A DNA stretch of 64,000 nucleotides from a virus, in the IMG/VR virus record IMGVR_UViG_3300002060_000001, positions 1 through 64,000 of that record; one strand, 5' to 3'. The translations under genes were made by a program, and so were the position numbers. The notes beneath the pieces are model-generated. The model did not search any database and was not told the origin of the DNA. It was given only the letters and a program-made list of their open reading frames with translations. This document shows, piece after piece, positions 4,176-63,320 of this stretch. The stretch's first letter is position 1. Every line of letters starts with the position of its first letter.

Positions 4176-4856
4176 TCATAGAAACATATCCGGCTGTTCA
4201 TAGGCCTCCGATACACGCTGACACGCTATATCAAAGAACTTAGGGTCAATCTCAATGCCAGTCGCGGCCCTATTCATCTTTGTGGCCGCGACAAGCGTTG
4301 TTCCGGAACCCATATAGGGGTCAAGAATTGTGTCCTCTTTATCAAGATAGGATAGACACCACTGCATGACGGCTATCGGCTTTTGTGTCGGATGAACGGG
4401 CTTTTCGTTCTGTTCACTGTCCCGCACCATACCGTACCACCGATGATTTAAGCCCCTTATGGCTTTATCAAGATTTGTCCAGGCTAACTCGGCATGACCC
4501 TGATCCATTCGGGTGTTACCGTCAGCCTTAAACCAAACAAACCATGAGCGTGAGTTCGGAAGCTTATCCGCGTAACAGTTACCGCCCCACCAGATATGTT
4601 TATCGGCAAGCGGCAGGAATGGGCGCGGGTCAAAGTCCATATCTCCCGTGTCACCTATCAGTTGATCCTCTGGGCCAAAGTTCCGCTCCCTGACGGCGCT
4701 ATTCTTAGAGCCATGACGGGACGGCTTATAACCATAGCCATACGGTGGGTCCGCCACGATAGCCGTATGACGCGGAAAGTAAGGGTTTTTCACTATCTCA
4801 ACGCTGTCACCCAGAATAAGGCGGGACTTACCTATGATTTCCTCACGGATGATCAT
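4176..4856 (-). CDS. Beta-class N6-adenine/N4-cytosine DNA methyltransferase (CcrM-type fold)
   Basis: Motif IV DPPYG lies near the N-terminus and motif I DPYMGSGTT near the C-terminus. HPTQKPIAVMQWCL is also present. 226 aa. Confidence 0.9.
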   Translation of the reverse strand: MIIREEIIGKSRLILGDSVEIVKNPYFPRHTAIVADPPYGYGYKPSRHGSKNSAVRERNFGPEDQLIGDTGDMDFDPRPFLPLADKHIWWGGNCYADKLPNSRSWFVWFKADGNTRMDQGHAELAWTNLDKAIRGLNHRWYGMVRDSEQNEKPVHPTQKPIAVMQWCLSYLDKEDTILDPYMGSGTTLVAATKMNRAATGIEIDPKFFDIACQRVSEAYEQPDMFL

Positions 4857-5527: not shown

Positions 5528-5860
5528 TCACTGCGCGGCCCTTAATATAGTCAGGGCTTTATCCGCTCCGATGAGATTTATCAGGATGTTTAAGTCACGG
5601 TCACGAACCGACATAAGATACATTTCAGTCGGATAAACAGAGCGCGCCCTGTTAGGATTAACACGGATGCAACCCCGCTCTGATAGGGACATAACCAGTC
5701 GGTGAATACCTGACTTTGATGCTAAATTCATAGCATCCCGCATTTCATCATAGCTAGGGCTAAACCTATTCTCGGTGATGAACTTAACTATAAAATCCAT
5801 TAACTCAACTTGATGGGGTGTCATGCCCAGAAGCGGTTGATTTGACATAGCGCCTAACAT
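5528..5860 (-). CDS. LexA-type winged-helix DNA-binding protein lacking the S24 peptidase domain
   Basis: LTPHQVELMDFIVKFITENRFSPSYDEMRDAMNLASKSGIHRLVMSLSERGCIR matches the LexA N-terminal DNA-binding domain pattern. At only 110 aa there is no room for the Ser/Lys autocleavage domain. Confidence 0.6.
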   Translation of the reverse strand: MLGAMSNQPLLGMTPHQVELMDFIVKFITENRFSPSYDEMRDAMNLASKSGIHRLVMSLSERGCIRVNPNRARSVYPTEMYLMSVRDRDLNILINLIGADKALTILRAAQ

Positions 5861-6353: not shown

Positions 6354-6449
6354 CTTGATCTCCTAATCGGTGGACTTCATCGTCCTAAGATAATCACCTT
6401 AAATCATATTCGTGAGCCGCAGTCCAGTGAAATAACAAAAAAATGTTAT
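6354..6449 (-). promoter_or_regulatory. Promoter/leader cassette, copy A
   Basis: Minus-strand read: ATAACATTTTTTTGTTAT-TTCA-CTGGACTGCGG-17 nt-TTTAAG-...-AGGACGATGAAGTCCACC-GATTA-GGAGAT-CAAG-ATG. The same architecture occurs at 18625 and 52367. Confidence 0.6.
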
Positions 6450-9992: not shown

Positions 9993-10063
9993 GGATGCGT
10001 TCCTTTTCTGTAGTTTTCGCGTCGCCAAGCATGACCGAAAGGGAAAACAGGGTCAAGGAACAA

Positions 10064-10081
10064 ATCACATTTTTTTGTTAT
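10064..10081 (+). promoter_or_regulatory. Palindrome-family box ATCACA-T6-TGTTAT in the divergent control region
   Basis: Member of the ATAACA-W6-TGTTAT family. It lies in the 10029-10121 gap between divergent operons. TTGACG at 10087-10092 follows. Confidence 0.45.
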
Positions 10082-10121
10082 TCCGATTGACGGGGCTATC
10101 CTTTTATGTAATTTGCGACTT

Positions 10122-10370
10122 ATGAAAACAGCTTATGATCTCTTAGAACGCGCCCGAAAACTGGCTCAAGACCCAGACAGCGGCATAACGATTGCAGACC
10201 TTTCCCGCGAGTCAGGAATCCATGATCCGACACTTCGCAATATGTTGCGCGAGGGACAGAAAAACAGAACACTTGATAATTTGGGCGAACTTGAAAAAGC
10301 CCTTGAAAAACTTGCGCCGGAACAACCGGACAAGGCCGAAGTTCCCGTGAGCGGCGAGAATAAGGACTAA
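10122..10370 (+). CDS. Small HTH-type regulator (putative)
   Basis: ATG at 10122 (MKTAYDLLERARKLAQDPDSGITIADLSRESGIHDPTLRNMLREG...). It is the first gene of the rightward operon. Confidence 0.5.
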   Translation: MKTAYDLLERARKLAQDPDSGITIADLSRESGIHDPTLRNMLREGQKNRTLDNLGELEKALEKLAPEQPDKAEVPVSGENKD

Positions 10371-10399: not shown

Positions 10400-10900
10400 A
10401 TGGCAAAATCTGTCGAAAAAGGAGCCGCGTCGTCTAATGCTGTAGATGACGAGACATTCCGCGCATTTGTGCGTTTAGCCGCAGAGGCAAACGAAGTATG
10501 CGAAAAAGCTAATTCAGCTAAAAAACGACTGCGTAAACAAATTAAAGCGGCGGGCATTCAGCTTGGCGACTTTGACGCTGTGATGAAAATGACTGACTGG
10601 GGACGTTCAGAGGTCAGAGAACATTTTGACCGCCGGACACTATACGCCAAATGGCTGAACCTTCCTGTGGGATCACAAGGCGAAATGTTTACAAGCGGGA
10701 GTGAAAACTCTGAAACAGGCGCAGAAACTCAAGGTGATGTCGTCTTTGCGAAAGCTTATCAAGCGGGTGTCATGGGTAAAGCCGCCGACTGCCCAGAGGA
10801 ATACCTTGATCAAAGCACTAAATGGGCCGAGGGCTATAAAGCCGGACAAGACAGTCTGGCTATGGAACTCATCAACAAAAACAAAGCAACGGCAGAATAA
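10400..10900 (+). CDS. Hypothetical protein (166 aa)
   Basis: Track ORF with an SD-like GGAGA 9 nt upstream of the ATG. There is only weak GapR/DUF2312-like resemblance in residues 18-90, which is not enough to call. Confidence 0.5.
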   Translation: MAKSVEKGAASSNAVDDETFRAFVRLAAEANEVCEKANSAKKRLRKQIKAAGIQLGDFDAVMKMTDWGRSEVREHFDRRTLYAKWLNLPVGSQGEMFTSGSENSETGAETQGDVVFAKAYQAGVMGKAADCPEEYLDQSTKWAEGYKAGQDSLAMELINKNKATAE

Positions 10901-11469
10901 TGACTGTCGCTATAGCGCTTGATACATCCTCAAGACGCACTGGCTATGTGAGGGGGCGGACCGATGGTTCCGGCCCCTTAACTATATCACACTTTGGCCT
11001 CAACCGTGAGGACAAGAATGATATCGGTGCAGGGATGGTTGAATTTAGAGAGGCCTTGAGGCCGCGCCTATCGGGTGTTGATATTATTTTCATGGAAAAA
11101 CCCGCGCTGCCCTTTGGAAAGCTGAACTATAACACACTCCGAATCCTATACGGGATTGCCGGAATGGTTGAGGTCATGGCGATCGATATGGGCATCCCGT
11201 GCTTTGATGTTGATAACGGAAAACACAAAAAGCTGATTTACGGTAAGGGTGGGGCTAAACCCGCCAATGCAGAAGAATTGGCCGCCGCTTGGGGTTTTGA
11301 GTGTCAGAATGACGATGAGGCTGACGCCGCCGGAGTATTCCTGCACAGTGTCAAAACCATGTATCCGGCTGACTTTCAACACTGGCTTGACATCAAAACT
11401 AATAGTCCGCGAGTTGATTTCATCAAGAAAGTAAAGGGCGGAAAAAAGGCTCAAAAGGTTCTAATTTAA
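10900..11469 (+). CDS. RuvC-like Holliday junction resolvase
   Basis: IALDTSSRRTGYV (Asp1), IIFMEKP (Glu), NDDEADAAGVFLH (Asp-Asp), 189 aa. Start via TAATG overlap. Confidence 0.7.
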   Translation: MTVAIALDTSSRRTGYVRGRTDGSGPLTISHFGLNREDKNDIGAGMVEFREALRPRLSGVDIIFMEKPALPFGKLNYNTLRILYGIAGMVEVMAIDMGIPCFDVDNGKHKKLIYGKGGAKPANAEELAAAWGFECQNDDEADAAGVFLHSVKTMYPADFQHWLDIKTNSPRVDFIKKVKGGKKAQKVLI

Positions 11470-13154: not shown

Positions 13155-13385
13155 ATGAATATGCATCATTTTAACGTAGATATGGCCATAAAACATGGAT
13201 TAGTCATAGCTATCATCCTGCAATACATGAACGATTGTCAGGGAATGAACGGCGGCGAACCCCTATCTTTCAGCTATGATGAGCTCTGTAAAAAATTCTC
13301 ATATATTCCAAAAGGTGAGTTGAAATCCGCCATAACCTATATTTTTCATAAATCTTTAGGCCCAGTTCAGGTTGTTGTAAGATGA
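13155..13385 (+). CDS. Hypothetical protein (76 aa)
   Basis: Track ORF in an AT-rich stretch. Its stop overlaps the next start (ATGA). Confidence 0.45.
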   Translation: MNMHHFNVDMAIKHGLVIAIILQYMNDCQGMNGGEPLSFSYDELCKKFSYIPKGELKSAITYIFHKSLGPVQVVVR

Positions 13386-16950: not shown

Positions 16951-18639
16951 ATGCCTAGATTTGATGACGGGTTTAAAGAACAAATCCGTGATGCGGTCAG
17001 GGTCAGCCAGATAGTTGAAAAACATGTTAAGCTGAAACGGTCAGGCCGAGAACTTGTCGGCCTGTCCCCGTTCACGAATGAAAAAACCCCTAGCTTTTAT
17101 GTAAATGACGCGAAACAGTTCTATCACTGTTTTTCATCTGGGATGCACGGAGATGTGTTTGCCTTTGTGATGGAACTGCAGGGAATGACGTTTCCAGAGT
17201 CGGTTGAGTATCTCGCGGGCATAGCGGGGCTTGAGATGCCGTCCTATACGCCTCAACAGCGTCAACAGGACGACAGACGCAAGCTTTTATTTGCCGCGCT
17301 TAACGATGCACAGGACTTTTTTGTTCACTCATTAAAGAGTGAGGGAGCGGCTATCGCGCGTGAATACTTGGCTCACAGAAAGATTGATGAGGGTTCGGTG
17401 TCTAAATGGGGTCTGGGGTACGCGCCGCTCGTGTCCTCATCCCTGCCAAGCGCCCTAAAGAAACACAAAAAGGATATTTTGATTGAGGCGGGGCTTATCC
17501 GTGAAAACGCGCGCGGAACCTATGGGTTCTATCGTAACCGCCTGACATTCCCGATACGGGACAGGCAGGGCCGCGTCACATCATTCGGCGCCCGTGCGCT
17601 TGAGGATGATCAAAAACCCAAATATGTGAACGGTCAAGAAAGTCCGGTATTTAGTAAATCAAAGAACCTCTATGGCCTTAATGTATCGAGCGCCGCTATT
17701 GGTCTGAACCGTCAGGCGAACGGATTGATTTTGTCAGAGGGCTATCTTGATGTCATAGCCCTAGACCGCGCCGGAATACCACTGGGCGTCGCGCCATTAG
17801 GGACATCCGTGACAGACGATCACCTGACGGAACTCTGGAGATGGGGGCCGGAGCCTATTATTTGTCTTGATGGTGACAAGGCGGGTTATCGTGCTGCGGG
17901 AAAGATTATTGAAAAAACACTTCCCCGAATAGGCGGCGGGCGAACCGTTATGTTCGCAAGACTGCCGTCAGGACAAGACCCTGACGATGTTTTGCGTCAA
18001 GGCGGCCCTGAAGCTCTAAAAGCAATATTAAAATCCCCCGTCCCGATGCCTCGCCTGATATGGGAACGTGAACTTAATGTTGAGAGAACCGACACCCCAG
18101 AGCGGCGCGCGGCTTTTAAGGCGCGGCTTAATGAGCATACGGCGCTCATCAAAGACAAAGACACCGCCCGTCATTATCGGGACGCCTTCTATAGGTGGAC
18201 GCGGGATCACTACAGGCGAGGGCAGAAAAATGCATCCCAGTCACTGCAATCCGGCGGTGTCATAGGTCATAGGGGTCTTGGGATTTTAGTCAGTTGCATT
18301 GACAACCCGGAAATCCTTGAGGAAATTGATGAACAGTTAATCATGGCCGAGTGGTCTCCTGAATGTAAGGCTATTTTTGACCTATTGTTTTCAGCTTATA
18401 TGAACAATCTTGAAATCAATCGTGACGTTATAGTTGATGGACTTCTGGTTGATATGAACACAAACGCGGCTGATATTCTGGAATCATACCCGCGCGGAAA
18501 ACAGATAGAAAAAAACGGACATCAATGGCGTTCAATCATAGATTCTGTTTATCTCTTGCGGAAGGATGAGCATAAACCAAAGACCCTTGCGGACGCTATG
18601 CGGGAACAAGGCATCAGACGCAGAATAACAAAAAAATAA
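16951..18639 (+). CDS. dnaG: DnaG-type primase with a degenerate zinc-binding motif
   Basis: SPFTNEKTPSFYVNDAKQFYHCFSSGMHGDVF aligns to the canonical CPFHNEKTPSF...YHCFGCGAHG. TOPRIM motifs EGYLDVIAL and CLDGDKAGYRAA are present. Confidence 0.9.
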   Translation: MPRFDDGFKEQIRDAVRVSQIVEKHVKLKRSGRELVGLSPFTNEKTPSFYVNDAKQFYHCFSSGMHGDVFAFVMELQGMTFPESVEYLAGIAGLEMPSYTPQQRQQDDRRKLLFAALNDAQDFFVHSLKSEGAAIAREYLAHRKIDEGSVSKWGLGYAPLVSSSLPSALKKHKKDILIEAGLIRENARGTYGFYRNRLTFPIRDRQGRVTSFGARALEDDQKPKYVNGQESPVFSKSKNLYGLNVSSAAIGLNRQANGLILSEGYLDVIALDRAGIPLGVAPLGTSVTDDHLTELWRWGPEPIICLDGDKAGYRAAGKIIEKTLPRIGGGRTVMFARLPSGQDPDDVLRQGGPEALKAILKSPVPMPRLIWERELNVERTDTPERRAAFKARLNEHTALIKDKDTARHYRDAFYRWTRDHYRRGQKNASQSLQSGGVIGHRGLGILVSCIDNPEILEEIDEQLIMAEWSPECKAIFDLLFSAYMNNLEINRDVIVDGLLVDMNTNAADILESYPRGKQIEKNGHQWRSIIDSVYLLRKDEHKPKTLADAMREQGIRRRITKK

Positions 18640-18722
18640 GATTTTACTGGACTGCGGGACATTCGCGTGTATATGGTGAAAATCTATCAGGGCGATGAAG
18701 CCCACCTGATTTGGAGATCAAT
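18625..18722 (+). promoter_or_regulatory. Promoter/leader cassette, copy B
   Basis: ATAACAAAAAAATAAGAT-TTTA-CTGGACTGCGG-16 nt-TATATG-...-AGGGCGATGAAGCCCACC-TGATTT-GGAGAT-CAAT-ATG. Confidence 0.6.
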
Positions 18723-18974
18723 ATGAAAAACTGGACATTCACAACAGATTTCAAACATATCATCAAAGTTTTTGATGAAAACGGTGAATTATGCGCCGAC
18801 TTTTGTCGTGACAGCAAAGAGGATGCATTCCGTCTTTTCGTCTGCGGGATGCATAGGTCTGCGACTATCGGCGGTCAGCGCTTTAGTCTTACTCATAAAA
18901 AAACAGGGGAAAAGATCATAGACGGCGGTTTAATATTCCCTGCGAAAATAGATAAGGTTTTAGGATTGAAATGA
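18723..18974 (+). CDS. Hypothetical protein (83 aa)
   Basis: ATG at 18723, 6 nt after GGAG. The track ORF uses an upstream TTG. First gene after cassette B. Confidence 0.55.
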   Translation: MKNWTFTTDFKHIIKVFDENGELCADFCRDSKEDAFRLFVCGMHRSATIGGQRFSLTHKKTGEKIIDGGLIFPAKIDKVLGLK

Positions 18975-19217: not shown

Positions 19218-19436
19218 ATGTCAAAAGAACAGCAGGTTTTTCTTAAGGTAAAAGATAGCTCTTCGACAAGAACTGTTGACTGGCCATTTCGTGAAATCCC
19301 TCAAATGGGTGACACGGTTTATGTTTTAGGTGTGGCTTATCGTGTCATCAATCGCGATTTTAGAACTGACGATATCGTTGATGAAGGCGGGGAGCCATCT
19401 GTCCGCATTAATGTCTGGATGGAACCATATAAATGA
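19218..19436 (+). CDS. Hypothetical protein (72 aa)
   Basis: ATG at 19218 with GGAG at 19207-19210 (MSKEQQVFLKV...). The longer track ORF 19092-19436 would overlap the previous gene. Confidence 0.5.
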   Translation: MSKEQQVFLKVKDSSSTRTVDWPFREIPQMGDTVYVLGVAYRVINRDFRTDDIVDEGGEPSVRINVWMEPYK

Positions 19437-21448
19437 AAGTCGGTTCAATATGTTCAGGGATAGAGGCCGCCAGTCAGGCCGCGCCTGATAATTGGGAGTT
19501 TGCCTTTTTTAGTGAAATTGAGAAGTTTCCGTCAGCGGTTCTGGCTCATCACTATCCTGACATCCCTAATCTCGGTGATTTTACAACTATCAAGGCGGGT
19601 GACTGGAAAGATGTCACGCTTCTGTGCGGCGGCCCGCCGTGTCAAACTTTCTCTATTGCGGGAAACCGTGGCGGTCTTAATGATGACCGTGGAAACTTAA
19701 CCCTTGAATACGTGAGGATGATGCATGACTTCGCAGACAATGGACTTATTTGGGGACTCTATGAGAACGTCCCCGGAATCTTGTCAGACAAAACAAATGC
19801 CTTCGGAAGTTTCCTTTCAGGAATTGTCGGTGGAGACGCTCCCTTATGTCCGCCCGACGCCACATGGGGTGAGCTCACAGACGATGACGGACAGCCACTT
19901 GGAACCTTTGGTTGGCAACAGATCAAATGGCCCAGTCAAGGTATGGTTGAGGGGCCACGGGCACGGGCGGCATGGGATGTTCTCGACGCTCAATGGTTCG
20001 GGTTGGCGCAACGACGCAAGCGTGTGTTTGTTGTCATCAGTTTTGCAAAAGACCGTGATCCCGCAAAAGTATTATTTGAGCGGAAAGGCGTGTTTGGGAA
20101 TACTCCGCCGAGCCGAAAAGCGGGACAAAGACTTACCGGAAAACCTATGGAGAGCTCTGGCGACAGTAGTAACAAAATCGGTGTTGATGGGGATAGGGAT
20201 AATGGCGAAAAAGATGAAATCTCAATTATAGACAGGGCCGCCTTTAACCAAGGGGCAAACGCCCTTTATGATCCTAAAATTGAGATAGGTGACTTGATGC
20301 CCGCTCTTGTCGCGCGCGGCCCCCACGCTGTCGGTCATAAAGAACCTGTCGGCGCTAGAATGGTAGCGTTTGGAGAGTATGAAATTGATGAAACAGCCTC
20401 AACTATAAAAGCCAGAGACTATAAAGATGCGACTGACCTTATAGCTTTTTCAGCTAAAGACTATGGCGGTGATGCCACCGAAAACCTAGCGCCGACAATG
20501 CGCGCGGGAAGCCATGATAAAAGTCACGCAAATAGCGGAAACTGGGTTGCTATAGCCGTTCAAGATGGACGTGAGATTGAAAAGAAGCAAAACGGGCTTG
20601 GTGTCAACACAGATAATATTGCCTATACTTTAGATAAAGCCGCAACCCAAGCAGTTGCATTTAAACCATCACATTATACTCGCGGAAAAGATGGTAAACC
20701 GTCAGAGATAACACCCCCCCTGACGGCTGACGCCGATAAAGGAGATCAAGACCCTGTTGTTTTAGCTCCAACACATCAAGAACCTTACACGCTTGAAATT
20801 AGGGGGCGTGATAGTGGCCGAGAACTTGAATATCGTGATGACGGAACGGCTAATTCACTGCGGGCCTCATCTGGCGGACGGGACGGAATGGGTGTCGGTG
20901 CTGTCGCATTTTCTCAAAACCTACGTGATGAAGTTCGACTGCAGGGCGGTGATGGTCAAATAGCGGGAGCGCTATCAGCAAGCCCCGGAATGAAACAGTG
21001 GACTTATATAGCCCAGACAGACAAAAAGCCTGTTTATGAGGTTCATGGGATGGATAGTAGGGTTTCTTTTTTAAGGGATGATTTATGCGGGACTGTCACC
21101 GCCAGATACGGAACAGGCGGAAACAATATTCCTATTACGCTTGACTATACCCCTTACGCAGTCCGGCGTCTGACGCCTGTTGAGTGTGAACGCCTTATGG
21201 GTTTCCCTGATAATTTCACCTTAATTGATTACACGAGCCGCGCGTCAGAGGTAAAGATTGCCGAAGACGTTGAACGGTATGCTATCAGAATGGGGTATGA
21301 TACGCAGGACGAAAATGTCATTCGTATGTTTATGTGTCCTGACGGCCCGCGCTATAAGGCTCTGGGTAACAGTTGGGCCGTTCCTGTTGTTAAATGGATA
21401 TTTGACCGGATAGAGGCGCAAGAATCAGCGCTGCGGGCGGCGGCATGA
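19433..21448 (+). CDS. Giant C5-cytosine DNA methyltransferase with an oversized variable region
   Basis: Motif I SICSGIEA, IV GGPPCQTFSIAG, VI ENVPG, VIII QRRKRVFVV. About 370 aa of variable region follow, then RRLTPVECERLMGFPDNFT and YKALGNSWAVPVVKWI (IX/X). Confidence 0.9.
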   Translation: MKVGSICSGIEAASQAAPDNWEFAFFSEIEKFPSAVLAHHYPDIPNLGDFTTIKAGDWKDVTLLCGGPPCQTFSIAGNRGGLNDDRGNLTLEYVRMMHDFADNGLIWGLYENVPGILSDKTNAFGSFLSGIVGGDAPLCPPDATWGELTDDDGQPLGTFGWQQIKWPSQGMVEGPRARAAWDVLDAQWFGLAQRRKRVFVVISFAKDRDPAKVLFERKGVFGNTPPSRKAGQRLTGKPMESSGDSSNKIGVDGDRDNGEKDEISIIDRAAFNQGANALYDPKIEIGDLMPALVARGPHAVGHKEPVGARMVAFGEYEIDETASTIKARDYKDATDLIAFSAKDYGGDATENLAPTMRAGSHDKSHANSGNWVAIAVQDGREIEKKQNGLGVNTDNIAYTLDKAATQAVAFKPSHYTRGKDGKPSEITPPLTADADKGDQDPVVLAPTHQEPYTLEIRGRDSGRELEYRDDGTANSLRASSGGRDGMGVGAVAFSQNLRDEVRLQGGDGQIAGALSASPGMKQWTYIAQTDKKPVYEVHGMDSRVSFLRDDLCGTVTARYGTGGNNIPITLDYTPYAVRRLTPVECERLMGFPDNFTLIDYTSRASEVKIAEDVERYAIRMGYDTQDENVIRMFMCPDGPRYKALGNSWAVPVVKWIFDRIEAQESALRAAA

Positions 21449-22047
21449 TTTATACAGATTTCAGCAAAATACCGCTCTTTGGTTATAATATGATTATGGC
21501 TGATCCGCCTTGGGAATTTAAACTGCGGTCAGACAAAGGTGAGGATAAAAGCCCTCAAGCACAATATAACTGCATGCCGCTTGATGAAATCTGCTCAATG
21601 AATGTGGCTGATCTGGCGGCGGGGAATTGCCTCTTATGGCTCTGGGTCACGAACCCGATGATTGATCAAGGGCTTGATGTTTTGAGGGCTTGGGGCTTTC
21701 AATTCAAAACGGCCGGCACTTGGGTCAAGATGTCAAAGTCCTGGACCGCCGACGGATGGAAAGACGGCAAAGAGCCTAAATTGAATTTCGGGACAGGTTA
21801 TATTTTGCGTTCAGCAAATGAACCGTTTCTTATCGGGACAATGGGGGATAACGATACAAGCAAATCCGTCCGTTCAGCCATAAGGGGTGCAGTTAGGGAA
21901 CATAGTCGCAAGCCCGATGAGGCGTACCGCGAGGCCGAGCGTCTTTTACCGAGCGCTTATAGGCTTGATATGTTTAGCCGTGAGGAACGGCAGGGATGGG
22001 ATTCTTTTGGTTTTGAAGCAGGGAAGTTCAATGAAAAAATGCAATAA
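21445..22047 (+). CDS. MT-A70 family N6-adenine methyltransferase
   Basis: IMADPPWEF catalytic motif and CLLWLWVTNPM...WGFQFKT...HSRKPDE. 200 aa. Confidence 0.85.
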   Translation: MIYTDFSKIPLFGYNMIMADPPWEFKLRSDKGEDKSPQAQYNCMPLDEICSMNVADLAAGNCLLWLWVTNPMIDQGLDVLRAWGFQFKTAGTWVKMSKSWTADGWKDGKEPKLNFGTGYILRSANEPFLIGTMGDNDTSKSVRSAIRGAVREHSRKPDEAYREAERLLPSAYRLDMFSREERQGWDSFGFEAGKFNEKMQ

Positions 22048-22612
22048 ATGCGGGGTAGAAAAGCCTAACACTTCAGAGTTTTTTGCAAAAAACAAAACTT
22101 GTGTTGGGGGGCTAACAAGCACTTGCAAAAAATGCATTAATTACAGAACAAGCCAGTGGAAAAAAGAAAACAAAATTAAAATTACTGACTCTGAAGACTA
22201 TCATAAAAAAGCAAGAGAAAGAACCCAAAGACGGACAAAATGGTTAGCTGAAAATGAACCTATCGTCTATCAAGCGAAGGCATTACTGACCTCTCTGGGA
22301 GATCGCTGTAATAAAAACAATTTATTCCGTGATGATGTTTTTAAAACAAGAAAATATATTGCCGAATGGCTTGAGCGACAACCTAACTGTGAGTGCTGTA
22401 ACGTAAAGTTCAGCATAGGAAAAAAAGACAAAGGCAGGGCCCTTGATTCATCTCCCAGTTTAGACCGTTTCAATTTAAAGATAGGATACACTAAGGAAAA
22501 CACAAAACTGATATGTTGGCGCTGCAATAATATCAAAAGGAACTACACCCAACACGACCTCAAGCTAGTAGCGGAATGGATGGATAAGGTGGAGATTATT
22601 GATGAAAAATAA
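22031..22612 (+). CDS. HNH / endonuclease VII-like (His-Me finger) nuclease
   Basis: ATG at 22031 with a GGGAAG SD. N-terminal CNKCG...CKKC Zn finger; C-terminal CECC...SPSLDRFNLKIGYTKENTKLICWRCNNIKRN. Markedly AT-rich. Confidence 0.65.
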   Translation: MKKCNKCGVEKPNTSEFFAKNKTCVGGLTSTCKKCINYRTSQWKKENKIKITDSEDYHKKARERTQRRTKWLAENEPIVYQAKALLTSLGDRCNKNNLFRDDVFKTRKYIAEWLERQPNCECCNVKFSIGKKDKGRALDSSPSLDRFNLKIGYTKENTKLICWRCNNIKRNYTQHDLKLVAEWMDKVEIIDEK

Positions 22613-22967
22613 TCTTTCTAAGCGTGAATCTCTTAAAATATGGCACGAGGTCACAACTCATATCGTCAAAGAAAAAATAATCGATTTAAGTAATCGGCAG
22701 CTTTTTATTATTCTGGAAATCTATCTCTTTGACGGGCCGCATACGATTAAATCTCTGTCAGCATCAATGAACACTAGCAAGGCGGTTGTCGTGAGGGCTG
22801 TCGATACGTTGAGCCAAATAAACTTTTTAAAGAGACGGCCAGACCCTCGTGACAGGAGATCTGTTTTAATCGTGAGAACCGCGCAAGGATCAATTTATGT
22901 GAACTCACTTGGCGACCTCATATCTCAAAAAATGAACCTTAAAGATGATGAAAAGGGACAGCTATGA
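22602..22967 (+). CDS. MarR-family winged-helix regulator
   Basis: LSNRQLFIILEIY...HTIKSLSASMNTSKAVVVRAVDTLSQINFLKRRPDPRDRRSVLIVRTAQG is the MarR hallmark. Confidence 0.75.
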   Translation: MKNNLSKRESLKIWHEVTTHIVKEKIIDLSNRQLFIILEIYLFDGPHTIKSLSASMNTSKAVVVRAVDTLSQINFLKRRPDPRDRRSVLIVRTAQGSIYVNSLGDLISQKMNLKDDEKGQL

Positions 22968-23300: not shown

Positions 23301-24962
23301 ATGGCCGAAAGTGAATTGATTAAAAAACACCCCGTTCCCGATGAGGCTCTTGACGGCGATATCATAATCCTAGCCAAAAAAGGCGCGGGAAAGACTGTCA
23401 CGGGCAAGAACATCGTTGAGGATTTATTGTCTCAAGGTGAACAGGTTGTCGTCATAGACCCTCTATCTGTCTGGTGGGGGCTGAAATCAAGCCCTGACGG
23501 TAAATCTGACGGATTTCCGATAGCTATATTCGGCGGCCCGCGTGGTGACGTACCGCTAAACCTAGACGCCGCTATCCCTTTAGCGAAAACGCTTGTCAAA
23601 AATAACCTTCCGGCGGTCATTGATTTGTCTGAATGGCTTGAGGAGGATCAGTCCTCATTCCTATCAGGGTTCTTGTCTGAAATCTATCAGGGCAATAAAA
23701 AGCCGATATGGATAGTTCTTGAGGAGGCGCATGAGTTTGCGCCCCAGACGGCAAATAGCGGTCAACAACATGCCTGTCTGGCTATGGTTCGCCGGATAGC
23801 CAAAGGCGGACGGTCAAAAGGCATTCGTCTCATAGCTATTACGCAACGGAACGCTGAATTGCACAAATCAATCGTCAGCGGCGCGAGTACCGTCATCGCA
23901 ATGAAAACAACCGCCCCGCTTGATCAAGCCCCCATCCTGACGTGGTTCAAGGGTAACGGGGACAAAGAGTTCTCGGCTAAGGTCAAAGACGGTCTGGGTA
24001 AACTTAAACGAGGCGAGGCCTTTATAGGCGCTGCGGATCAGGACTTTTTTGAGAAGGTTCAGTTTCCCCTTAACGGTACGTTTGACAGTTCATCAACCCC
24101 CAAGCGTGGCGAGACGCGCGATGAGCCCACGACACTGGCTAAGATTGACCTGACGGACATCAAAGAGGCTTTAAAGCCCAAAGAGGAACCCAAGCCTGAA
24201 AAGACCGTCAGCGCGGGTTCAGCATCGGCCTCGCAGTTGAAAGCTGAATATGAACGCGGAAAGTCTGACGCCGAGGCCGCGTCTAAACAGGACATTCGTG
24301 TCGGAAAAGATATAGCCTTTCAAAGAGGCCGTGCGTTCGGCCATAAGGAGTGCCTTGAAAATTTAAAGGTTCTGACGGATGAGCCTCAACCTTATTCCCC
24401 TTATGATAGTGAGGAGATCACCTCTCCCATCATTTATGGTGAGATTAAAACTGGAACTGTTATGGTTTCAGATGAAATTATGGGTCTGACGGTTGATGTC
24501 AAAACCTTTGATAAGAAAGTCCCAACATCAAACAGTAAAAAGAACGTATTGGTCCGGGCCGCGGAACGGGTCTATCCTGCTAAACTTACATGGTCAGCGT
24601 TATGCGCGACGGACGGGCGGAAATCACGCGGCGGACATTTTAACGGACTTAAAAAGAAAGCGCTCGATAGCGGACTGATACGGGATGAGGGCGGCCTTGT
24701 CGTCCTGACTTATAATCCACTGCCCCCCGGCGCAGAAAATCGGCCGGCGGCTGATCTGCTTGAGGAAAAACTCCCGCAACCCGCCCGAAAGATGTTCAGC
24801 GCTATCAGGCGTCATCCTCAACGTACTTGGGAGGAGATAGCCGAAATATTAGAGGTTCAGCCTCGCGGCGGACACTGGAATAGCGGACGCGCCGTTTTAA
24901 GAAACAGCAATCTTATAGATGAGAGAGGAAATTCTGTTCAAATACATCCAGATTTGACTTGA
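23301..24962 (+). CDS. HerA/FtsK-superfamily (DUF87-like) P-loop ATPase fused to two C-terminal wHTH-like repeats
   Basis: Walker A AKKGAGKTVTG, VVVIDPLSVWWGL, Walker B IWIVLEEAHEFAP, GGRSKGIRLIAITQRN. The C-terminus carries two similar modules with RGGHFNG and RGGHWNSG. Confidence 0.7.
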   Translation: MAESELIKKHPVPDEALDGDIIILAKKGAGKTVTGKNIVEDLLSQGEQVVVIDPLSVWWGLKSSPDGKSDGFPIAIFGGPRGDVPLNLDAAIPLAKTLVKNNLPAVIDLSEWLEEDQSSFLSGFLSEIYQGNKKPIWIVLEEAHEFAPQTANSGQQHACLAMVRRIAKGGRSKGIRLIAITQRNAELHKSIVSGASTVIAMKTTAPLDQAPILTWFKGNGDKEFSAKVKDGLGKLKRGEAFIGAADQDFFEKVQFPLNGTFDSSSTPKRGETRDEPTTLAKIDLTDIKEALKPKEEPKPEKTVSAGSASASQLKAEYERGKSDAEAASKQDIRVGKDIAFQRGRAFGHKECLENLKVLTDEPQPYSPYDSEEITSPIIYGEIKTGTVMVSDEIMGLTVDVKTFDKKVPTSNSKKNVLVRAAERVYPAKLTWSALCATDGRKSRGGHFNGLKKKALDSGLIRDEGGLVVLTYNPLPPGAENRPAADLLEEKLPQPARKMFSAIRRHPQRTWEEIAEILEVQPRGGHWNSGRAVLRNSNLIDERGNSVQIHPDLT

Positions 24963-24964
24963 GA

Positions 24965-24982
24965 ATAACAATAAATTGTTAT
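24965..24982 (+). promoter_or_regulatory. Near-perfect 18-bp palindrome ATAACAATAAATTGTTAT
   Basis: TTGACT at 24953-24958 lies 17 nt upstream of TGTTAT, and TATAAT overlaps at 24979-24984. The box sits 38 nt upstream of the ATG at 25021. Confidence 0.55.
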
Positions 24983-31652: not shown

Positions 31653-31970
31653 TTATCCTGCAGGGTCAGGGGCCGGGCTTTGTTCCGGAGCGCTTAATTC
31701 TTGAAGCCGGATATTTTTTTCTGAAAACTTTTTCCCTAGAGTAAACTCAACAACCTGAACCGATTGAGAGAGTTCTTTAACCAAAGGAAGGCTTGGATCA
31801 AGTTGTGAAACTGCATATTTTGCCTCATCAAGACCGGCTTGAACCTTACTTATAATTTCACCGACAATAGGAATCATCATTTCCAAATCGGCCTTTTCTG
31901 TTTCCGAATTACGGCTGTCTATACTGACTTTTGCCGCATCAACTTTTTTCTGAATATCAGTCTTTGCCAT
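31653..31970 (-). CDS. Hypothetical protein (105 aa)
   Basis: Track ORF, helical and acidic, followed by a terminator. Confidence 0.5.
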   Translation of the reverse strand: MAKTDIQKKVDAAKVSIDSRNSETEKADLEMMIPIVGEIISKVQAGLDEAKYAVSQLDPSLPLVKELSQSVQVVEFTLGKKFSEKNIRLQELSAPEQSPAPDPAG

Positions 31971-31981
31971 TTGGCTCTCTC

Positions 31982-32299
31982 CTATTTTGGTTTTTTTGGG
32001 AATACCACGTCACTTGGATTATCACAAGATTTTGTTATATCGCGCAAAGTGTTACGATATTGATCGCGCCCCGCAAGCTGTTCTTTCGTTTTTCTGGCCC
32101 TATAGCTCACGTTATCCCAATAGTCTGTTTGAGCTAAAAGTTTTTTCGCTTTGGCCTTTATATCATTCGGGGTGACTTCAGCCGAATGTGACTCGCGAGC
32201 CTTTTCTGTTCTGCAAACATCACATCCATTTTTGCGGATGGTAAAGCTTGGCCTTTCTCTATCGCATTTAGGGCATTTTTTAATTTTATGTTTTGCCAT
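31982..32299 (-). CDS. Tail-fibre assembly chaperone-like protein with an N-terminal Zn ribbon
   Basis: CPKCDRE...CDVC is followed by QTDYWDNVSYRARKTKEQLAGRDQYRNTLRDITKSCDNPSDVVFPKKP. This matches the usual chaperone motif (dW...W..YR..LRDIt....P). It lies just downstream of the fibre gene. Confidence 0.55.
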   Translation of the reverse strand: MAKHKIKKCPKCDRERPSFTIRKNGCDVCRTEKARESHSAEVTPNDIKAKAKKLLAQTDYWDNVSYRARKTKEQLAGRDQYRNTLRDITKSCDNPSDVVFPKKPK

Positions 32300-46017: not shown

Positions 46018-46035
46018 GTCTTATTTTTTTGTTAT
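46018..46035 (-). promoter_or_regulatory. Palindrome-family box (minus strand ATAACAAAAAAATAAGAC)
   Basis: 17/18 identical to the box of cassette B. It lies 36 nt upstream of the ATG at 45981. Confidence 0.45.
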
Positions 46036-52366: not shown

Positions 52367-52463
52367 ATCGTATTTTTCTGTTATTTTTCTCTGGACTGCG
52401 GTGTTTTTCCATGATTTATAGGTATTGTCTTAGGGCGATGAAGCCCACCTAGCGGAGATGACA
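52367..52463 (+). promoter_or_regulatory. Promoter/leader cassette, copy C
   Basis: ATCGTATTTTTCTGTTAT-TTTTCT-CTGGACTGCGG-17 nt-TTTATA-...-AGGGCGATGAAGCCCACC-TAGC-GGAGAT-GACA-ATG. Confidence 0.6.
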
Positions 52464-53065: not shown

Positions 53066-53316
53066 TACCACCTGACCGCAATGAAACTGACATCCTCAAA
53101 ATGCGGTCTTACTTTTACGCCAAGATGCGGGAAAAGGATGACCCAGAGCGGAGCCGACGGATTTGGAATATCCAGAAAATACGGTGGAACCGCATAACCG
53201 ATAATGGGCGAAAGATGCCTCATTATGGGCTTCCTAAACAGGAAGTCAGAACCGTGACTAAGACCGTTGAGAGACTTAAAATCATCGTCCGTCACATTGA
53301 AATACGCGAGAATTAA
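53062..53316 (+). CDS. Hypothetical basic protein (84 aa)
   Basis: ATG at 53062 with an ATGA overlap (MIPPDRNETDILK...). Confidence 0.45.
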   Translation: MIPPDRNETDILKMRSYFYAKMREKDDPERSRRIWNIQKIRWNRITDNGRKMPHYGLPKQEVRTVTKTVERLKIIVRHIEIREN

Positions 53317-53329
53317 ACAGGAGACACTT

Positions 53330-53734
53330 ATGTCAAAACACGCACCACGAAAGCCTGACCCTATTGATGTTCATGTGGGAACACAAATCAGGCTCCGCCG
53401 TCAGGCATTAAAGATGAGCCAAGAAAAATTAGGGGACGCTTTAGGCATCACCTTTCAACAGGTTCAAAAATATGAGCGCGGGGACAACCGAGTCAGCGCA
53501 AGCCGTCTGCACAAGACAGCCGCCACCTTGAGAACGCCCGTTCAGGATTTCTTTCCTGCAGATAACGGGGAACAGAAAGCGCCCGCTAAACAAGCCGTTG
53601 CTATTCAGGATTTCATTTCAAGCACTAACGGCGTTAAGTTCGCAGAGGCTCTGTCAAAGATACCCCGTCGGATGGAAACTGAACTCTTAGCCCTCATCCG
53701 CGTGATGGGTAAATCTAAGCAACCTGTAGCATGA
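53330..53734 (+). CDS. XRE-family HTH transcriptional regulator (alphaproteobacterial type)
   Basis: ATG at 53330, 6 nt after GGAG. DVHVGTQIRLRRQALKMSQEKLGDALGITFQQVQKYERGDNRVSASRL is the conserved alpha-type XRE core. Confidence 0.8.
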   Translation: MSKHAPRKPDPIDVHVGTQIRLRRQALKMSQEKLGDALGITFQQVQKYERGDNRVSASRLHKTAATLRTPVQDFFPADNGEQKAPAKQAVAIQDFISSTNGVKFAEALSKIPRRMETELLALIRVMGKSKQPVA

Positions 53735-54152: not shown

Positions 54153-54334
54153 CAGAACCAACACCAGAGCAGAGGTTCAGCGGCATAAAGGGCGCTATCA
54201 TCAATGCCAATAAGAGCGCGAACCGGATTGAGTTCGACGGACCTAACTTTCAAACAGAGGTCACTGATCTGGCGTCTCGCCTTGAACTTATTGCCGGACA
54301 CCTAAGAACCTTAGCAAAAGACACTAGCGCGTAA
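54149..54334 (+). CDS. Hypothetical protein (61 aa)
   Basis: Track ORF with an ATGA overlap. Confidence 0.45.
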   Translation: MTEPTPEQRFSGIKGAIINANKSANRIEFDGPNFQTEVTDLASRLELIAGHLRTLAKDTSA

Positions 54335-54348
54335 CAATAAATTGTTAT
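54331..54348 (+). promoter_or_regulatory. Palindrome-family box GTAACAATAAATTGTTAT upstream of ssb
   Basis: 17/18 identical to the box at 24965. It lies 37 nt upstream of the ssb ATG. Confidence 0.5.
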
Positions 54349-55366: not shown

Positions 55367-55759
55367 CTAAGCGACCTTAGTGACGAATTTAGACACCGCG
55401 TAAAACTCTTGAGCCCAGTCCGGCCCCATATATTCCGCAACCTCAAGCCAGTAATGTTTTTGATCAACTGGCATTGTCCCTGTCTCATTTGTTGAACCCA
55501 TAGAGTTCATTATGAGTCGAGCAAGAGCCCGTGGATGAATAACTCCTTGATGAGTTGTCCTTAAGGCTCTTAAGGCATCGTTTTTATCTTTTTCAGACAT
55601 ATCTTGCAGGTCAGGAATATCGTTCTCTGTCGGACAGCTATCCTGCCAATCCTTAAACGCCTCAAGCATATCAAGATGATTTTGTTGTTCGATGTTTTTG
55701 TAATGATCTGAACTTGCGTCCATAAAATCTGTGGGCTTACCGCCCTTATATTTAAGCAT
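55367..55759 (-). CDS. Hypothetical protein (130 aa)
   Basis: Track ORF. The SD-like ATAGGAGCC ends 4 nt upstream of the ATG. Confidence 0.5.
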   Translation of the reverse strand: MLKYKGGKPTDFMDASSDHYKNIEQQNHLDMLEAFKDWQDSCPTENDIPDLQDMSEKDKNDALRALRTTHQGVIHPRALARLIMNSMGSTNETGTMPVDQKHYWLEVAEYMGPDWAQEFYAVSKFVTKVA

Positions 55760-55847
55760 CTAAGGCTCCTATAGGTATCGTTAAAGGTAAGCGCGATTTA
55801 ACCCGCGCATTGACAACCAAGCGGATTTGATGTCAGCAGTCAAGATG

Positions 55848-55865
55848 ATTACATTTTATTGTTAT
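55848..55865 (+). promoter_or_regulatory. Palindrome-family box ATTACATTTTATTGTTAT
   Basis: In the divergent gap 55760-55863, with TTGACA at 55810-55815 upstream. It overlaps the first ATG of the ParB-methyltransferase ORF. Confidence 0.4.
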
Positions 55866-57123
55866 GAAAGGACACCGGATGTCTAAAGAATGGCCCGCCG
55901 CTAAGATTTACAAACGAAAGCTATCGAGCCTCACGGGCTATGAGCGCAATTCCCGAACTCACTCTGACGCGCAGATTGAACAGCTTATGGCGTCAATCAA
56001 AGAGTGGGGGTGGACAATGCCCATATTGATTGATGAGAACAATATGATCATAGCGGTTCACGGGCGCGCGCAAGCCGCAGAAAGGCTTGGGATTGAAACC
56101 GTCCCCGTGATGATAGCCAAAGGATGGTCTGACGCTCAAAAGCGGGCCTATGTGATAGCTGATAACAAACTCGCCCTGAACGCCGGATGGGATGAGGATA
56201 TTTTGTCAGAGGAAATGGCCGCCCTTGAGGATATGGACTTTGACGTTGACCTTCTGGGTTTTGATGATCTTGAAATGTCAGGCCTAAGCCCTCAAGGCCC
56301 AGAGGAACCCGAAAAGGAAGCCCCTGAATATCAGGAAAAAGCCATAACGGTTCTGGGTGAAATTTGGGAATGCGGCCGGCACCGGGTGATGTGCGGTGAC
56401 GGGACAAGCGAAGAGGATCTCCTGAAATTGCTCAACGGGGCTGACGTTGATTGCCTCTATACGGACCCACCCTATGGAATATCTATTGTCAGCGGCGGCG
56501 GTAAGGTTGGAGGCGGCGGCCCTTTCGGCGGTATCAAAAAGGGAAAAGTTGGCGGCGCTAATATTGTCGAGTCATCAAACTTTGCACCCGTGATGGGTGA
56601 CGGCTCTATAGATGTAGCGGTTGCGGCGATTGAACTTATCAAGAAAATTGATCCCGCGGTTCAAATTATCTGGGGCGGGAACTATTACGCTAATCATCTT
56701 GAGAACTCATCCTGTTGGATTGTCTGGGATAAACAGAACACGGGAAATTTCGCTGACTGTGAACTCGCGTGGACAAATCAAAAGACTGCTGTCCGTAAAT
56801 TCGCCCATATGTGGAACGGAATGCTCAAGGCATCCGAGCGGGGCGTCAAGCGCGTTCACCCCACCCAGAAGCCTATAGCGCTTGCGGAATGGTGTCTTGA
56901 GCAATATGCGGGCCAATGTGAGACGGTTCTTGACCTCTTTACGGGTTCCGGCTCAACACTTTTGGGATGCGAGTCAGCCGATAAGCGCGGTTATATGATG
57001 GAACTGTCCCCTAACTATATCGATATCATCGTGAAACGGTGGCAGGACTATACGGGTCAGAAAGCCGTTCTCGCGGGTACTGACAAAACCTTTAATCAGA
57101 TTGAAAAAGAGCGCGCGGAATAA
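55864..57123 (+). CDS. ParB-like nuclease domain fused to a beta-class N6/N4 DNA methyltransferase
   Basis: The N-terminal YERNSRTHSDAQIEQLMASIKEWGWTMPILIDE...HGRAQAAERLGIETVPV is ParB/Srx-like. TDPPYG, HPTQKPIALAEWCL and DLFTGSGST are methyltransferase motifs. An alternative start at 55879 follows AAAGGA. Confidence 0.9.
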   Translation: MKGHRMSKEWPAAKIYKRKLSSLTGYERNSRTHSDAQIEQLMASIKEWGWTMPILIDENNMIIAVHGRAQAAERLGIETVPVMIAKGWSDAQKRAYVIADNKLALNAGWDEDILSEEMAALEDMDFDVDLLGFDDLEMSGLSPQGPEEPEKEAPEYQEKAITVLGEIWECGRHRVMCGDGTSEEDLLKLLNGADVDCLYTDPPYGISIVSGGGKVGGGGPFGGIKKGKVGGANIVESSNFAPVMGDGSIDVAVAAIELIKKIDPAVQIIWGGNYYANHLENSSCWIVWDKQNTGNFADCELAWTNQKTAVRKFAHMWNGMLKASERGVKRVHPTQKPIALAEWCLEQYAGQCETVLDLFTGSGSTLLGCESADKRGYMMELSPNYIDIIVKRWQDYTGQKAVLAGTDKTFNQIEKERAE

Positions 57124-57126
57124 ACG

Positions 57127-57144
57127 ATTGCAAAAAAATGTTAT
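57127..57144 (+). promoter_or_regulatory. Palindrome-family box ATTGCAAAAAAATGTTAT
   Basis: It lies just after the ParB-methyltransferase stop and before the terminator. No plus-strand gene follows. Confidence 0.35.
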
Positions 57145-57216
57145 TGCGATATATCTGAAATTCCCATCAAGATAATCTAAGCAGCGCCCCTGTCCGGATT
57201 ATTCGGGAAAACGAAA

Positions 57217-57250
57217 GGGTCAGACGTTCATTCCCCGTCTGACCCTTTTT
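57217..57250. terminator. Bidirectional rho-independent terminator
   Basis: GGGTCAGACG-9-nt loop-CGTCTGACCC, flanked by ACGAAA upstream and TTTTTCT downstream, between convergent genes. Confidence 0.8.
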
Positions 57251-62960: not shown

Positions 62961-63164
62961 TTAAGCCGCCCGCATCCGGATAGAGCCGTCAGGGCGATAG
63001 TTGACGTTCCGTCCCATAGATTTAGTAAATGACTTTTTTCCGCCAACTATAGTCATAAGAGCCTGACCGCCGCCCTTGCCGTTTTCAAAGTAATCATAAA
63101 TCGCATCAATGTCTTTATCAGAAAGCCTTGTGGCGTTAGCGTCTTTTAGGGTTGTTCTCGGCAT
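62961..63164 (-). CDS. Hypothetical protein (67 aa)
   Basis: ATG at 63164 after AAAGGAAC (MPRTTLKDANATRL...). The track ORF starts 30 nt earlier. Confidence 0.45.
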   Translation of the reverse strand: MPRTTLKDANATRLSDKDIDAIYDYFENGKGGGQALMTIVGGKKSFTKSMGRNVNYRPDGSIRMRAA

Positions 63165-63187: not shown

Positions 63188-63205
63188 ATAACAATTTATT
63201 GTGAT
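63188..63205 (-). promoter_or_regulatory. Palindrome-family box (minus strand ATCACAATAAATTGTTAT)
   Basis: 23 nt upstream of the ATG at 63164. Near-identical to the boxes at 24965 and 54331. Confidence 0.5.
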
Positions 63206-63320
63206 TATGGTCTATCGGGCGGTCAGGTTCTCGTCAAGACCCCCTCAAATAACTTACACGAGGCGCTCTATAGTCACACTGAACGCGCGTCAGCCCGCGT
63301 GATCAGACGTATAGATAGAA

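Follow-up and report, generated by a model that had tools for sequence, protein, structure and literature searches.

A conserved, two-fold-symmetric 18-bp site at early promoters of a siphovirus known from metagenomes, and a small helix-turn-helix protein as its candidate binder

An 18-base-pair (bp) DNA site, which we call the box, recurs in a 64,000-nucleotide (nt) stretch of viral DNA, positions 1 to 64,000 of IMG/VR record IMGVR_UViG_3300002060_000001 (the window). The stretch covers 64 kb of a marine siphovirus genome of ~71 kb from a metagenome assembly (ENA ERZ27298442). Judged from its sequence and from comparison with related phages, the box is a real, functional and conserved DNA site with two-fold symmetry, and the same comparisons support its acting as a promoter-linked regulatory site to which a protein would bind. 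Its most regular feature, missed in a preliminary description of the window, is its position 3–7 nt upstream of a sigma-70-type −35 hexamer (TTGACN or TGGACT). We infer that the best candidate for its binder is an 82-amino-acid (aa) helix-turn-helix (HTH) protein encoded at 10122–10370, directly downstream of a box-bearing promoter.

Statistics and conservation of the box

The preliminary description gave the box as a palindrome, ATAACA-W6-TGTTAT, and tabulated ten copies while counting eleven. The coordinates and strands of all ten were verified, and a further good match was found at 32021–32038. With up to three mismatches allowed, that palindrome pattern has 10 matches in the window, whereas 100 dinucleotide shuffles averaged 1.08 and reached 5 at most. 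A symmetrised weight matrix gave 11 matches at ≥12 bits against 1.36 expected, a count that is circular because the matrix was derived from the same sites. The location test is free of that circularity: non-coding DNA accounts for 7.65% of positions yet is touched by 10 of the 11 matches (binomial P = 7e-11). Equal frequency in coding and intergenic sequence, which the preliminary description had named as an outcome that would refute its proposal, is thus clearly not what is seen. Within intergenic DNA alone there are 9 matches against 0.20 after composition-preserving shuffles, and AT-richness therefore does not account for the boxes. One additional match, at 13332, is weak and probably due to chance.

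A symmetric 18-bp site was thus correctly recognised, but the sequence proposed for its arms was too specific. What is truly conserved is AT-N3-A-W6-T-N3-AT, the three inner arm bases varying within one genome. Conservation is strongest at box positions 1, 2, 6, 13, 17 and 18, and the information content is symmetric and limited to ~20 bp. The core is pure A/T in nearly all copies. An A7/T7 core occurs in both orientations relative to orthologous promoters, and the three AATAAATT copies all have the same orientation (n = 3 only).

Relatives of the phage are known solely as metagenome contigs. The closest are L016 and L020 (~85% protein identity), followed by a phage from BBAY60 represented by L017, L021, L029 and L031 (~62%) and by L022, L023 (from BBAY80) and L024 (~53–55%); L027 and L028 are short contigs. 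The box is enriched in L016 (4 copies against 0.08 expected), L017 (3 against 0.34), L020 (3 against 0.54) and L021 (3 against 0.51). None was found in the unrelated phages L018 and L019 or in the distant capsid relatives L032 and L033, and a scan of IMG/VR for the exact box returned 14 unrelated contigs with one chance copy each.

Boxes occupy orthologous borders across the clade: they lie in the divergent region between the exonuclease and small-HTH genes, at the primase stop codon, between the tail-tube and chaperone genes, in the gaps that follow the DUF3268 and MuF-like genes, and at the 3′ end of the ParB-methylase gene. At the primase site the hybrid ATAACA-A7-TAAGAT is identical in three phages, the 18-mer at 18625 being shared with L020 and L021. 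More distant phages carry other palindrome arms at the same positions, namely ATCTTA..TAAGAT (L022 and L024), ATCTCG..TGAGAT (L023) and ATCGCA..GGCGAT (L028); the L028 dyad lacks an A-tract and has a G-containing core, AAGTATTG.

Position of the box relative to promoters

The architecture common to these phages consists of the box, a gap of 3–7 nt, a −35 hexamer (TTGACN, TGGACT or TTGCAW), a spacer of 16–18 nt and a −10-like hexamer. Beyond the −10 lies either the ATG of the small HTH gene, at 7–9 nt and without a Shine-Dalgarno sequence, or a short leader that contains a conserved hairpin and is followed by a Shine-Dalgarno sequence and a gene. An exact TTGAC directed outward 3–7 nt past the box edge was found on 13 of 64 box sides, against 0.44 expected, and a combined −35/−10 score of ≥9 in 14 of 60 box orientations, against a background of 2.95%. 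The box spans approximately −41 to −58 of these host-type early promoters (centre about −49.5), and the −40 to −60 placement holds for six window promoters and their orthologs. Scans with the sigma-70 consensus showed no overall enrichment of E. coli-type promoters in the window; the promoters emerged solely through the fixed offset from the box and the comparison between phages.

In the divergent early region a single box stands 5–7 nt from the −35 element of each of two back-to-back promoters, an arrangement seen in 8 phages. The elements in the window are:

10064–10081: box ATCACATTTTTTTGTTAT, between the back-to-back promoters P_L and P_R and common to both; the orthologous box is in the same place in 8 phages
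10087–10114, plus strand: P_R, with −35 TTGACG (10087–10092), a 16-nt spacer and −10 TAATTT (10109–10114); the ATG follows 7 nt on
10028–10056, minus strand: P_L, with −35 TTGACC (10051–10056), a 17-nt spacer and −10 CATGCT (10028–10033); it would drive the exonuclease/RNase T/RecT operon
10122–10370, plus strand: gene of the small HTH protein (82 aa), which opens the rightward early operon, a Cro-like position

At P_R, TTGACN is present in all 8 phages and the distance from box to ATG is 40–43 nt; in the relatives the leftward −35 lies 5–7 nt from the opposite box edge. Mean pairwise identity across the P_R footprint of the 8 phages is 0.61 in the box, 0.87 in the −35 and 0.60 in the −10, compared with 0.30–0.35 in the flanks, gap, spacer and discriminator. 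Position C3 of the box is invariant at P_R (8/8 phages), and whether position 16 is G or T depends on the clade. At the small HTH gene, 7 nt separate the −10 from the ATG (10109–10124) with no Shine-Dalgarno sequence; the arrangement is the same in 8/8 phages and suggests translation from a leaderless mRNA.

The remaining copies in the window are:

6432–6449: box ATAACAAAAAAATGTTAT of cassette A, 5 nt upstream of TGGACT (6421–6426, minus strand)
18625–18642: hybrid box ATAACAAAAAAATAAGAT of cassette B, overlapping the primase stop codon, with TGGACT (18648–18653) 5 nt downstream
52367–52384: box ATCGTATTTTTCTGTTAT of cassette C, located in a divergent region with TGGACT (52392–52397) 7 nt downstream
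55848–55865: box ATTACATTTTATTGTTAT, 13 nt before the ATG of the ParB-methylase gene (55879; start verified)
24965–24982: box ATAACAATAAATTGTTAT, inside TTGACT(24954–24959)-17-TGTTAT and overlapping TGTTATAAT, a perfect TGnTATAAT, with no −35/−10 downstream
54331–54348: box GTAACAATAAATTGTTAT, with the SSB start 37 nt on and promoter geometry on neither side
63188–63205, minus strand: box ATCACAATAAATTGTTAT, 23 nt before an ATG at 63164
46018–46035, minus strand: hybrid box ATAACAAAAAAATAAGAC, within the late operon between the tail-tube and tail-chaperone genes
57127–57144: box-like sequence ATTGCAAAAAAATGTTAT, after the ParB-methylase stop codon, reading TTGCAA-16-TATATC
32021–32038: extra copy ATCACAAGATTTTGTTAT, of uncertain status, 39 nt inside the 3′ end of the open reading frame (ORF) 31982–32299

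The three cassette boxes have the promoter geometry. Boxes orthologous to that of cassette A are present at L020:4851 and L022:4353 and in intergenic sequences of L023 and L024, and at the cassette C ortholog, L017:8912, TGGACA lies 6 nt downstream of the box. At 55848 the promoter-type geometry is on the side away from the ParB-methylase gene, where TTGACT (55838–55843, minus strand), 4 nt off, would serve the leftward genes at 55367–55759. No −35/−10 pair is found at the expected offset at 24965, 54331, 46018, 63188 or 57127. The 63188 box begins 3 nt past the −10 of a possible promoter, TTGACG(63232–63237)-17-TAGACC(63209–63214), and would cover its transcription start; its equivalent after the MuF-like gene is L016:4050. 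The 46018 box has its ortholog at L017:1512, in the same gap in the BBAY60 phage. The sequence at 57127 aligns with the −35 and spacer of an L016 promoter and not with an L016 box. The 32021 copy has GTGACG-18-CAAAAT on the minus strand, 7 nt beyond the box, and could be an internal promoter for 31653–31970, or chance.

Several regularities proposed earlier do not extend to all copies. The TGTTAT half, said always to face the downstream gene, does not do so at 18625 or 46018, where TAAGAT or TAAGAC faces the gene instead; for perfect palindromes the rule has no meaning, and at 55848 the sole promoter-type geometry points the opposite way. The two distance classes to the ATG hold roughly, at 36–40 nt (four sites) and 73–80 nt (the three cassettes), but 55848 (13 nt) and 63188 (23 nt) belong to neither. 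The promoter TTGACT-17-TGTTAT is present at 24965 as described but is not general, since no −35 is conserved upstream of the boxes. Two other arrangements were considered and set aside: a "class II activator" geometry at 24965 (TAAAAT 20 nt past the box), a reading that fails at 63188, 54331 and 46018, and a class with the box downstream of the promoter, which is not significant.

Candidate binder, proposed mechanism and alternatives

That the box is the operator of a phage HTH protein, as the preliminary description proposed, is also our best reading, and of the five proteins it named, the one at 10122 fits best: it is conserved in every box-bearing relative, it adjoins the box, and its recognition helix co-varies with it. 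The gene lies directly downstream of the box-bearing P_R in 8/8 phages. Its family, searched with a two-sequence profile, has ~8 members among 1.84 billion representative proteins and is restricted to the clade, as is the box. The predicted HTH comprises residues 24–47. In phages with Arg at residue 40, half-site position 4 is G in 14/14 half-sites; in those with N, S or I it is G in 17/48 and T in 28/48. A contact between Arg and G is classical in protein–DNA recognition, and the covariation is supportive of the small HTH protein as the binder. Only two candidate regulators follow the box through the family, this protein and a LexA-like protein considered below.

We see about an even chance that the box is an operator for a two-fold-symmetric (dimeric) protein, namely the 82-aa HTH protein, that controls early transcription. 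The box lies immediately upstream of host-type promoters (sigma-70, or alphaproteobacterial RpoD), where the polymerase α subunits' C-terminal domains (αCTDs) normally touch DNA. One copy sits between the −35 elements of P_L, for the recombination genes, and P_R, for the regulator and replication genes, and others stand ahead of the internal early promoters in cassettes A, B and C. The 82-aa protein, as the product of the first P_R gene, would be made from a leaderless mRNA and, once made, would bind all boxes and lower the early promoters, its own included (autoregulation and early shut-off). At sites centred near −50 it would occupy the αCTD/UP-element position and displace the αCTDs from the A/T core; at 24965, 55848 and 63188, where the box lies over the −10 or start, it would block polymerase directly. 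Repression is modestly favoured over activation because P_R and P_L already have near-consensus −35 hexamers, and because repression is the sole sign of regulation that fits every class of site, including the copies over the −10 (24965) or the start (63188).

A number of observations weigh against this proposal. The covariation amounts in effect to one split between two clades, so that its p-value overstates the support. The small HTH protein scores 19.1 bits against Pfam HTH_3, where the cut-off is 23, and its HTH_3 and HTH_26 matches are weak; its AlphaFold model, with four helices, has a predicted local distance difference test score (pLDDT) of 66, and fold and sequence searches gave no significant match in the PDB. 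In the most distant phages, L023 and L024, boxes are recognisable at orthologous sites only. Promoter geometry is absent at 5 of the 11 window copies, whose role is unaccounted for, and the class with the box over the core promoter lacks statistical support (TTGAC pointing into the box, 7 against 3.6 expected). A position upstream of the −35 is unusual for a repressor and usual for an activator or UP element, and the sign of regulation is uncertain. In the cassettes of the window's own clade the −35/−10 register is ambiguous, TGGACT at 5–7 nt competing with TTCACT-17-TATGAT abutting the box; the alternative register moves the box centre by ~5 bp, and the conclusion is unchanged.

Strong phage early promoters often carry UP elements, and the A/T core, at −46 to −52, might be bound by host αCTDs to strengthen the early promoters with no dedicated regulator involved. 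The location of the box at ~−41 to −58 falls in the UP-element window of −40 to −60 (PMC2613000), and nearly all cores are pure A/T. We nevertheless think this explanation unlikely: the conserved positions are in the arms (AT..A / T..AT, with C3 in 8/8 phages at P_R) and not in the core, L028 has its dyad at the same spot with the G-containing core AAGTATTG, half-site changes between clades parallel those in a phage protein, no promoter lies downstream of five window copies, and at 24965 and 63188 the box overlaps the −10 or start site. Quite unlikely, too, is a site for a host transcription factor or nucleoid protein recruited by the phage to its early promoters. Immediate-early promoters fire before phage proteins exist, so a host factor at −50 would be sensible, and the neighbouring −35/−10 elements fit the Caulobacter RpoD consensus, TTGaCgS / GCtANAWC (PMC8144410). 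Against a host factor, the half-site variation follows the phage protein, and boxes of a single genome differ in their inner arm bases, as would be unusual for the sites of a host regulon. Nor do the boxes match the consensus sites of CtrA, LexA (GTTC-N7-GTTC), FixK/FNR or Fur/Zur; the IHF site, WATCAANNNNTTR, has at least two mismatches in every copy inspected, and the Zur site has TGTTAT..ATAACA, the opposite arrangement.

An operator of another phage regulator is improbable. The LexA-like protein (5528–5860), a MarR protein (22599–22967), an XRE protein (53267–53734) and the HTH protein at 18971 are all credible DNA-binding proteins. Of the 5 relatives whose early region is covered, 4 have kept the first, and its gene belongs to the box-controlled operon of cassette A; in favour of the second, the MarR-family protein OhrR recognises TACAATT-AATTGTA, and four copies have a similar core, AACAAT..ATTGTT. 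The LexA-like protein does not co-vary with the box: the window and L022 share one recognition helix but differ in their boxes, and L024 has a different helix but the same box as L022. The box-bearing BBAY60 phage is not among the best 80 of 99 IMG/VR loci with a homolog, of which BBAY80 is the top match, and 79 homolog-bearing loci of unrelated phages (586 kb) show no enrichment of boxes (4 matches against 12.6 expected, and 78 against 78.8 for a generalised pattern). The MarR (22602), XRE (53330) and 18971 candidates have no detectable homologs in the sequenced, readable parts of the relatives and are not paralogs of the small HTH protein.

A core promoter element, with TGTTAT as a −10, TGnTAT as an extended −10, or the whole as a promoter for a phage-modified polymerase, would agree with the TTGACT-17-TGTTAT and TGTTATAAT readings at 24965 and with the 23–40 nt separating several copies from a start codon, but it is very improbable. 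Upstream of the boxes there is no conserved −35 (7 against 3.6 expected); conservation is also lacking in the three bases that follow TAT, including the key −7 T, TGnTATAAT being perfect at 24965 only; the box at 55848 ends 13 nt before an ATG, so that the start site would fall in the Shine-Dalgarno sequence; and conservation is symmetric, which would leave the left arm without a role. No phage RNA polymerase or sigma factor was found among the ~70 of 86 window ORFs scanned, and the flanking −35/−10 elements are of the ordinary host type, so the earlier suggestion of a phage-specific promoter finds no support. We give next to no chance to a hairpin role in RNA or DNA, whether as weak terminator, processing site or cruciform. 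Perfect copies can form an AU stem of 6–7 bp, but the minimum free energies are 0 to −4.7 kcal/mol and half of the copies do not fold; arm positions 3–5 are complementary in only 42–62% of copies, and the unpairable hybrid ATAACA..TAAGAT is identical in three phages. Folding and arm pairing together refute a hairpin as a general explanation.

Other candidates were examined and rejected. By-eye comparison with consensus sites of IHF, CtrA, Fis, CRP, LacI and Zur found none whose arrangement and spacing fit. LexA sites take the forms CTGT-N8-ACAG, GAAC-N4-GTTC and GTTC-N7-GTTC; the boxes do not match this SOS consensus, and they show neither covariation nor association with the LexA-like protein. 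A promoter for a phage RNA polymerase was dismissed because no polymerase was found among the scanned ORFs and the homolog of the window's 869-aa protein has an Ig-like surface domain. Resemblance to a T4-late-type TATAAATA element extends to 6/8 positions in three copies only, with no gp55-like gene, and there is no sequence likeness to a ParB/parS site or a methylase target.

Compared with known regulatory systems, the proposed operator of the 82-aa protein is closest in layout to the lambdoid Cro/O_R/O_L arrangement (lambda, 434, P22). In both, a small HTH gene is the first rightward early gene and is followed by replication genes, a leftward operon carries recombination genes of the exo/RecT type, and the sites are dyad-symmetric, 17–18 bp long and AT-rich in the centre, with autoregulation implied. 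Because this layout is present without cI, we read the small protein as Cro-like. Where lambdoid phages have three tandem operators over the −35/−10 elements, there is here one site, placed upstream of each of the two −35 hexamers; the promoters have no cI-like gene between them, approximately ten further copies are spread over the genome, and the small HTH protein has no significant similarity to Cro or CI. The half-site and spacing also differ from those of 434 (ACAA-N6-TTGT). That arrangement is never present in the boxes, ACAA-N4-TTGT occurs in four copies and neither in the rest, so the likeness to 434/P22 operators proposed earlier does not hold.

The stoperators of L5-type cluster A mycobacteriophages, bound by L5 gp71, are asymmetric 13-mers present in more than 20 copies, recognised by a monomer with two DNA-binding domains and oriented with transcription (PMC9283540). 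They share with the box a short site in many copies at promoters and in short intergenic gaps within operons (compare 46018 and 54331). The box, in contrast, is dyad-symmetric, has ~11 copies and no clear orientation rule, and its candidate protein has 82 aa; there is also no sign of lysogeny here, no integrase having been found in the scanned ORFs. The stoperators are at most a functional analogy. An UP element resembles the box in its −40 to −60 location (PMC2613000) and A/T-rich core and differs in that the box has symmetric conserved arms with fixed C/G, that one relative lacks the A-tract, and that some copies have no promoter. The box is dispersed over the phage genome, as are the sites of two known repressors. 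The P1 C1 and Streptomyces phage phiC31 repressors each act at a ~17-bp site found at a dozen or more places in the genome, often at operon starts. P1 sites are asymmetric, however, both phages are temperate, there is no sequence or protein similarity, and the geometry relative to the −35 differs. Middle and late promoters controlled by Mu Mor/C, P2 Ogr or phi29 p4 have a poor −35 and depend on an activator. They too have a dyad site just upstream of the −35 at several phage promoters, but here the −35 is near-consensus, including at the promoter of the regulator's own, earliest gene.

It is possible, though doubtful, that an orphan family of 82-aa, leaderless, Cro-like proteins, confined to an uncultured clade of siphoviruses with probably alphaproteobacterial hosts, runs the whole early programme through one dyad site at the αCTD/UP position of every early promoter. 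One copy would then control two promoters and the site would be re-used in late operons; the protein would compete with or recruit α subunits rather than occlude the −35/−10, a geometry distinct from those of lambda, P1 and L5, and its specificity would be a single Arg-to-G contact switched between sub-clades. The box and small HTH protein would be a new operator–regulator pair of a familiar kind, of somewhat unusual geometry, in a phage clade that has had no study. Repeated operators for one phage regulator are a well-known principle, and the finding extends our understanding rather than changing it. It offers a first regulatory map for a phage group known from metagenomes alone, in which the box points to a candidate regulator–operator pair, to a leaderless regulator gene and to six probable early promoters. 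It also yields a prediction of specificity, that Arg as opposed to N/S/I at residue 40 pairs with G as opposed to T at box positions 16 and 3; a test of it would need only synthetic DNA and a single small protein in purified form, and no culture of phage or host.

Genome context and further observations

The window genes include those for a sliding clamp, DnaB, DnaG, RecT and an exonuclease, four DNA methyltransferases and lambda-like tail proteins; no large repressor was found among the scanned ORFs. A search of 185,579 species genomes found no prophage relatives. Close relatives are absent from the cultured phages in INPHARED, whether sought by DNA or by the small HTH protein, and the best INPHARED matches to the capsid and DnaB proteins are at most ~35% identical. 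Capsid-based scanning of IMG/VR (a single protein), scans of JGI metagenomes and GTDB genomes, and a scan of IMG/VR with P0249 likewise returned no relatives. Beyond the phage relatives, the nearest DnaB proteins are cellular, from marine Alphaproteobacteria (Hyphomonadaceae, Maricaulaceae and Caulobacterales), and the relatives' −35/−10 elements, for example TTGACGC ... GCTATCGC, match the Caulobacter RpoD consensus (PMC8144410). Together, the box-adjacent promoter sequences and the DnaB homologs indicate that the host is probably an alphaproteobacterium.

The LexA-like protein (5528–5860, minus strand) has 110 aa and consists of a LexA DNA-binding domain only, with no protease domain; its 99 IMG/VR loci are on many unrelated viral contigs.

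Between the cassette promoters and their genes lies a leader hairpin, GGGC-GATGAA-GCCC followed by ACC, 5–10 nt before the Shine-Dalgarno sequence of the first gene. It is found at 6372–6385 (minus strand), 18690–18703 (plus) and 52433–52446 (plus), and also in L016 and L020–L024. The stem shows compensatory changes (GGAC..GTCC, GGGT..ACCC), the loop RWTGAM is conserved, and there is no Rfam match. The hairpin resembles RNA elements that bind proteins, and could be boxB/nut-like or a translational operator. In the cassette B leader of the BBAY60 phage (L021 17290–17510) an extra GC-rich stretch of ~200 nt, also with no Rfam match, separates the promoter from the conserved hairpin.

Downstream of the ParB-methylase gene, the orphan promoter-like TTGCAA-16-TATATC is followed by ~100 nt that fold at −36.5 kcal/mol with z = −5.7 (57128–57250) into a stem-loop and a 14-bp symmetric terminator. 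The region may be a small RNA, or a remnant leader with a bidirectional terminator; the homologous leader in L016 precedes a 171-aa gene missing from the window. Rfam and tRNA scans of the window were empty.

The four DNA methyltransferases encoded in this one genome are of N6/N4, C5 and MT-A70 types and a fusion of a ParB N-domain with an N6/N4 methylase:

4176–4856, minus strand: DNA methyltransferase gene
19433–21448, plus strand: DNA methyltransferase gene
21445–22047, plus strand: DNA methyltransferase gene
55879–57123, plus strand: DNA methyltransferase gene, the ParB-methylase fusion

Two proteins encoded on the minus strand, of 869 aa (59211–61820) and 480 aa (57694–59136), have no Pfam or PHROG match; their BBAY60 homologs are 41% and 76% identical, respectively, the larger with a match to an Ig-like surface domain, and both are presumably virion proteins. 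The ORF at 10900–11469 (plus strand) encodes one of the best-conserved early proteins of the clade (54–83% identity) and has no Pfam match; the motifs D-x-S...E...DEAD-A, judged by eye, suggest a RuvC-like nuclease. The large terminase of the BBAY60 phage (L021 1274–3778, minus strand) has 834 aa with LAGLIDADG and Hom_end matches, and probably contains an intein or a homing-endonuclease insertion.

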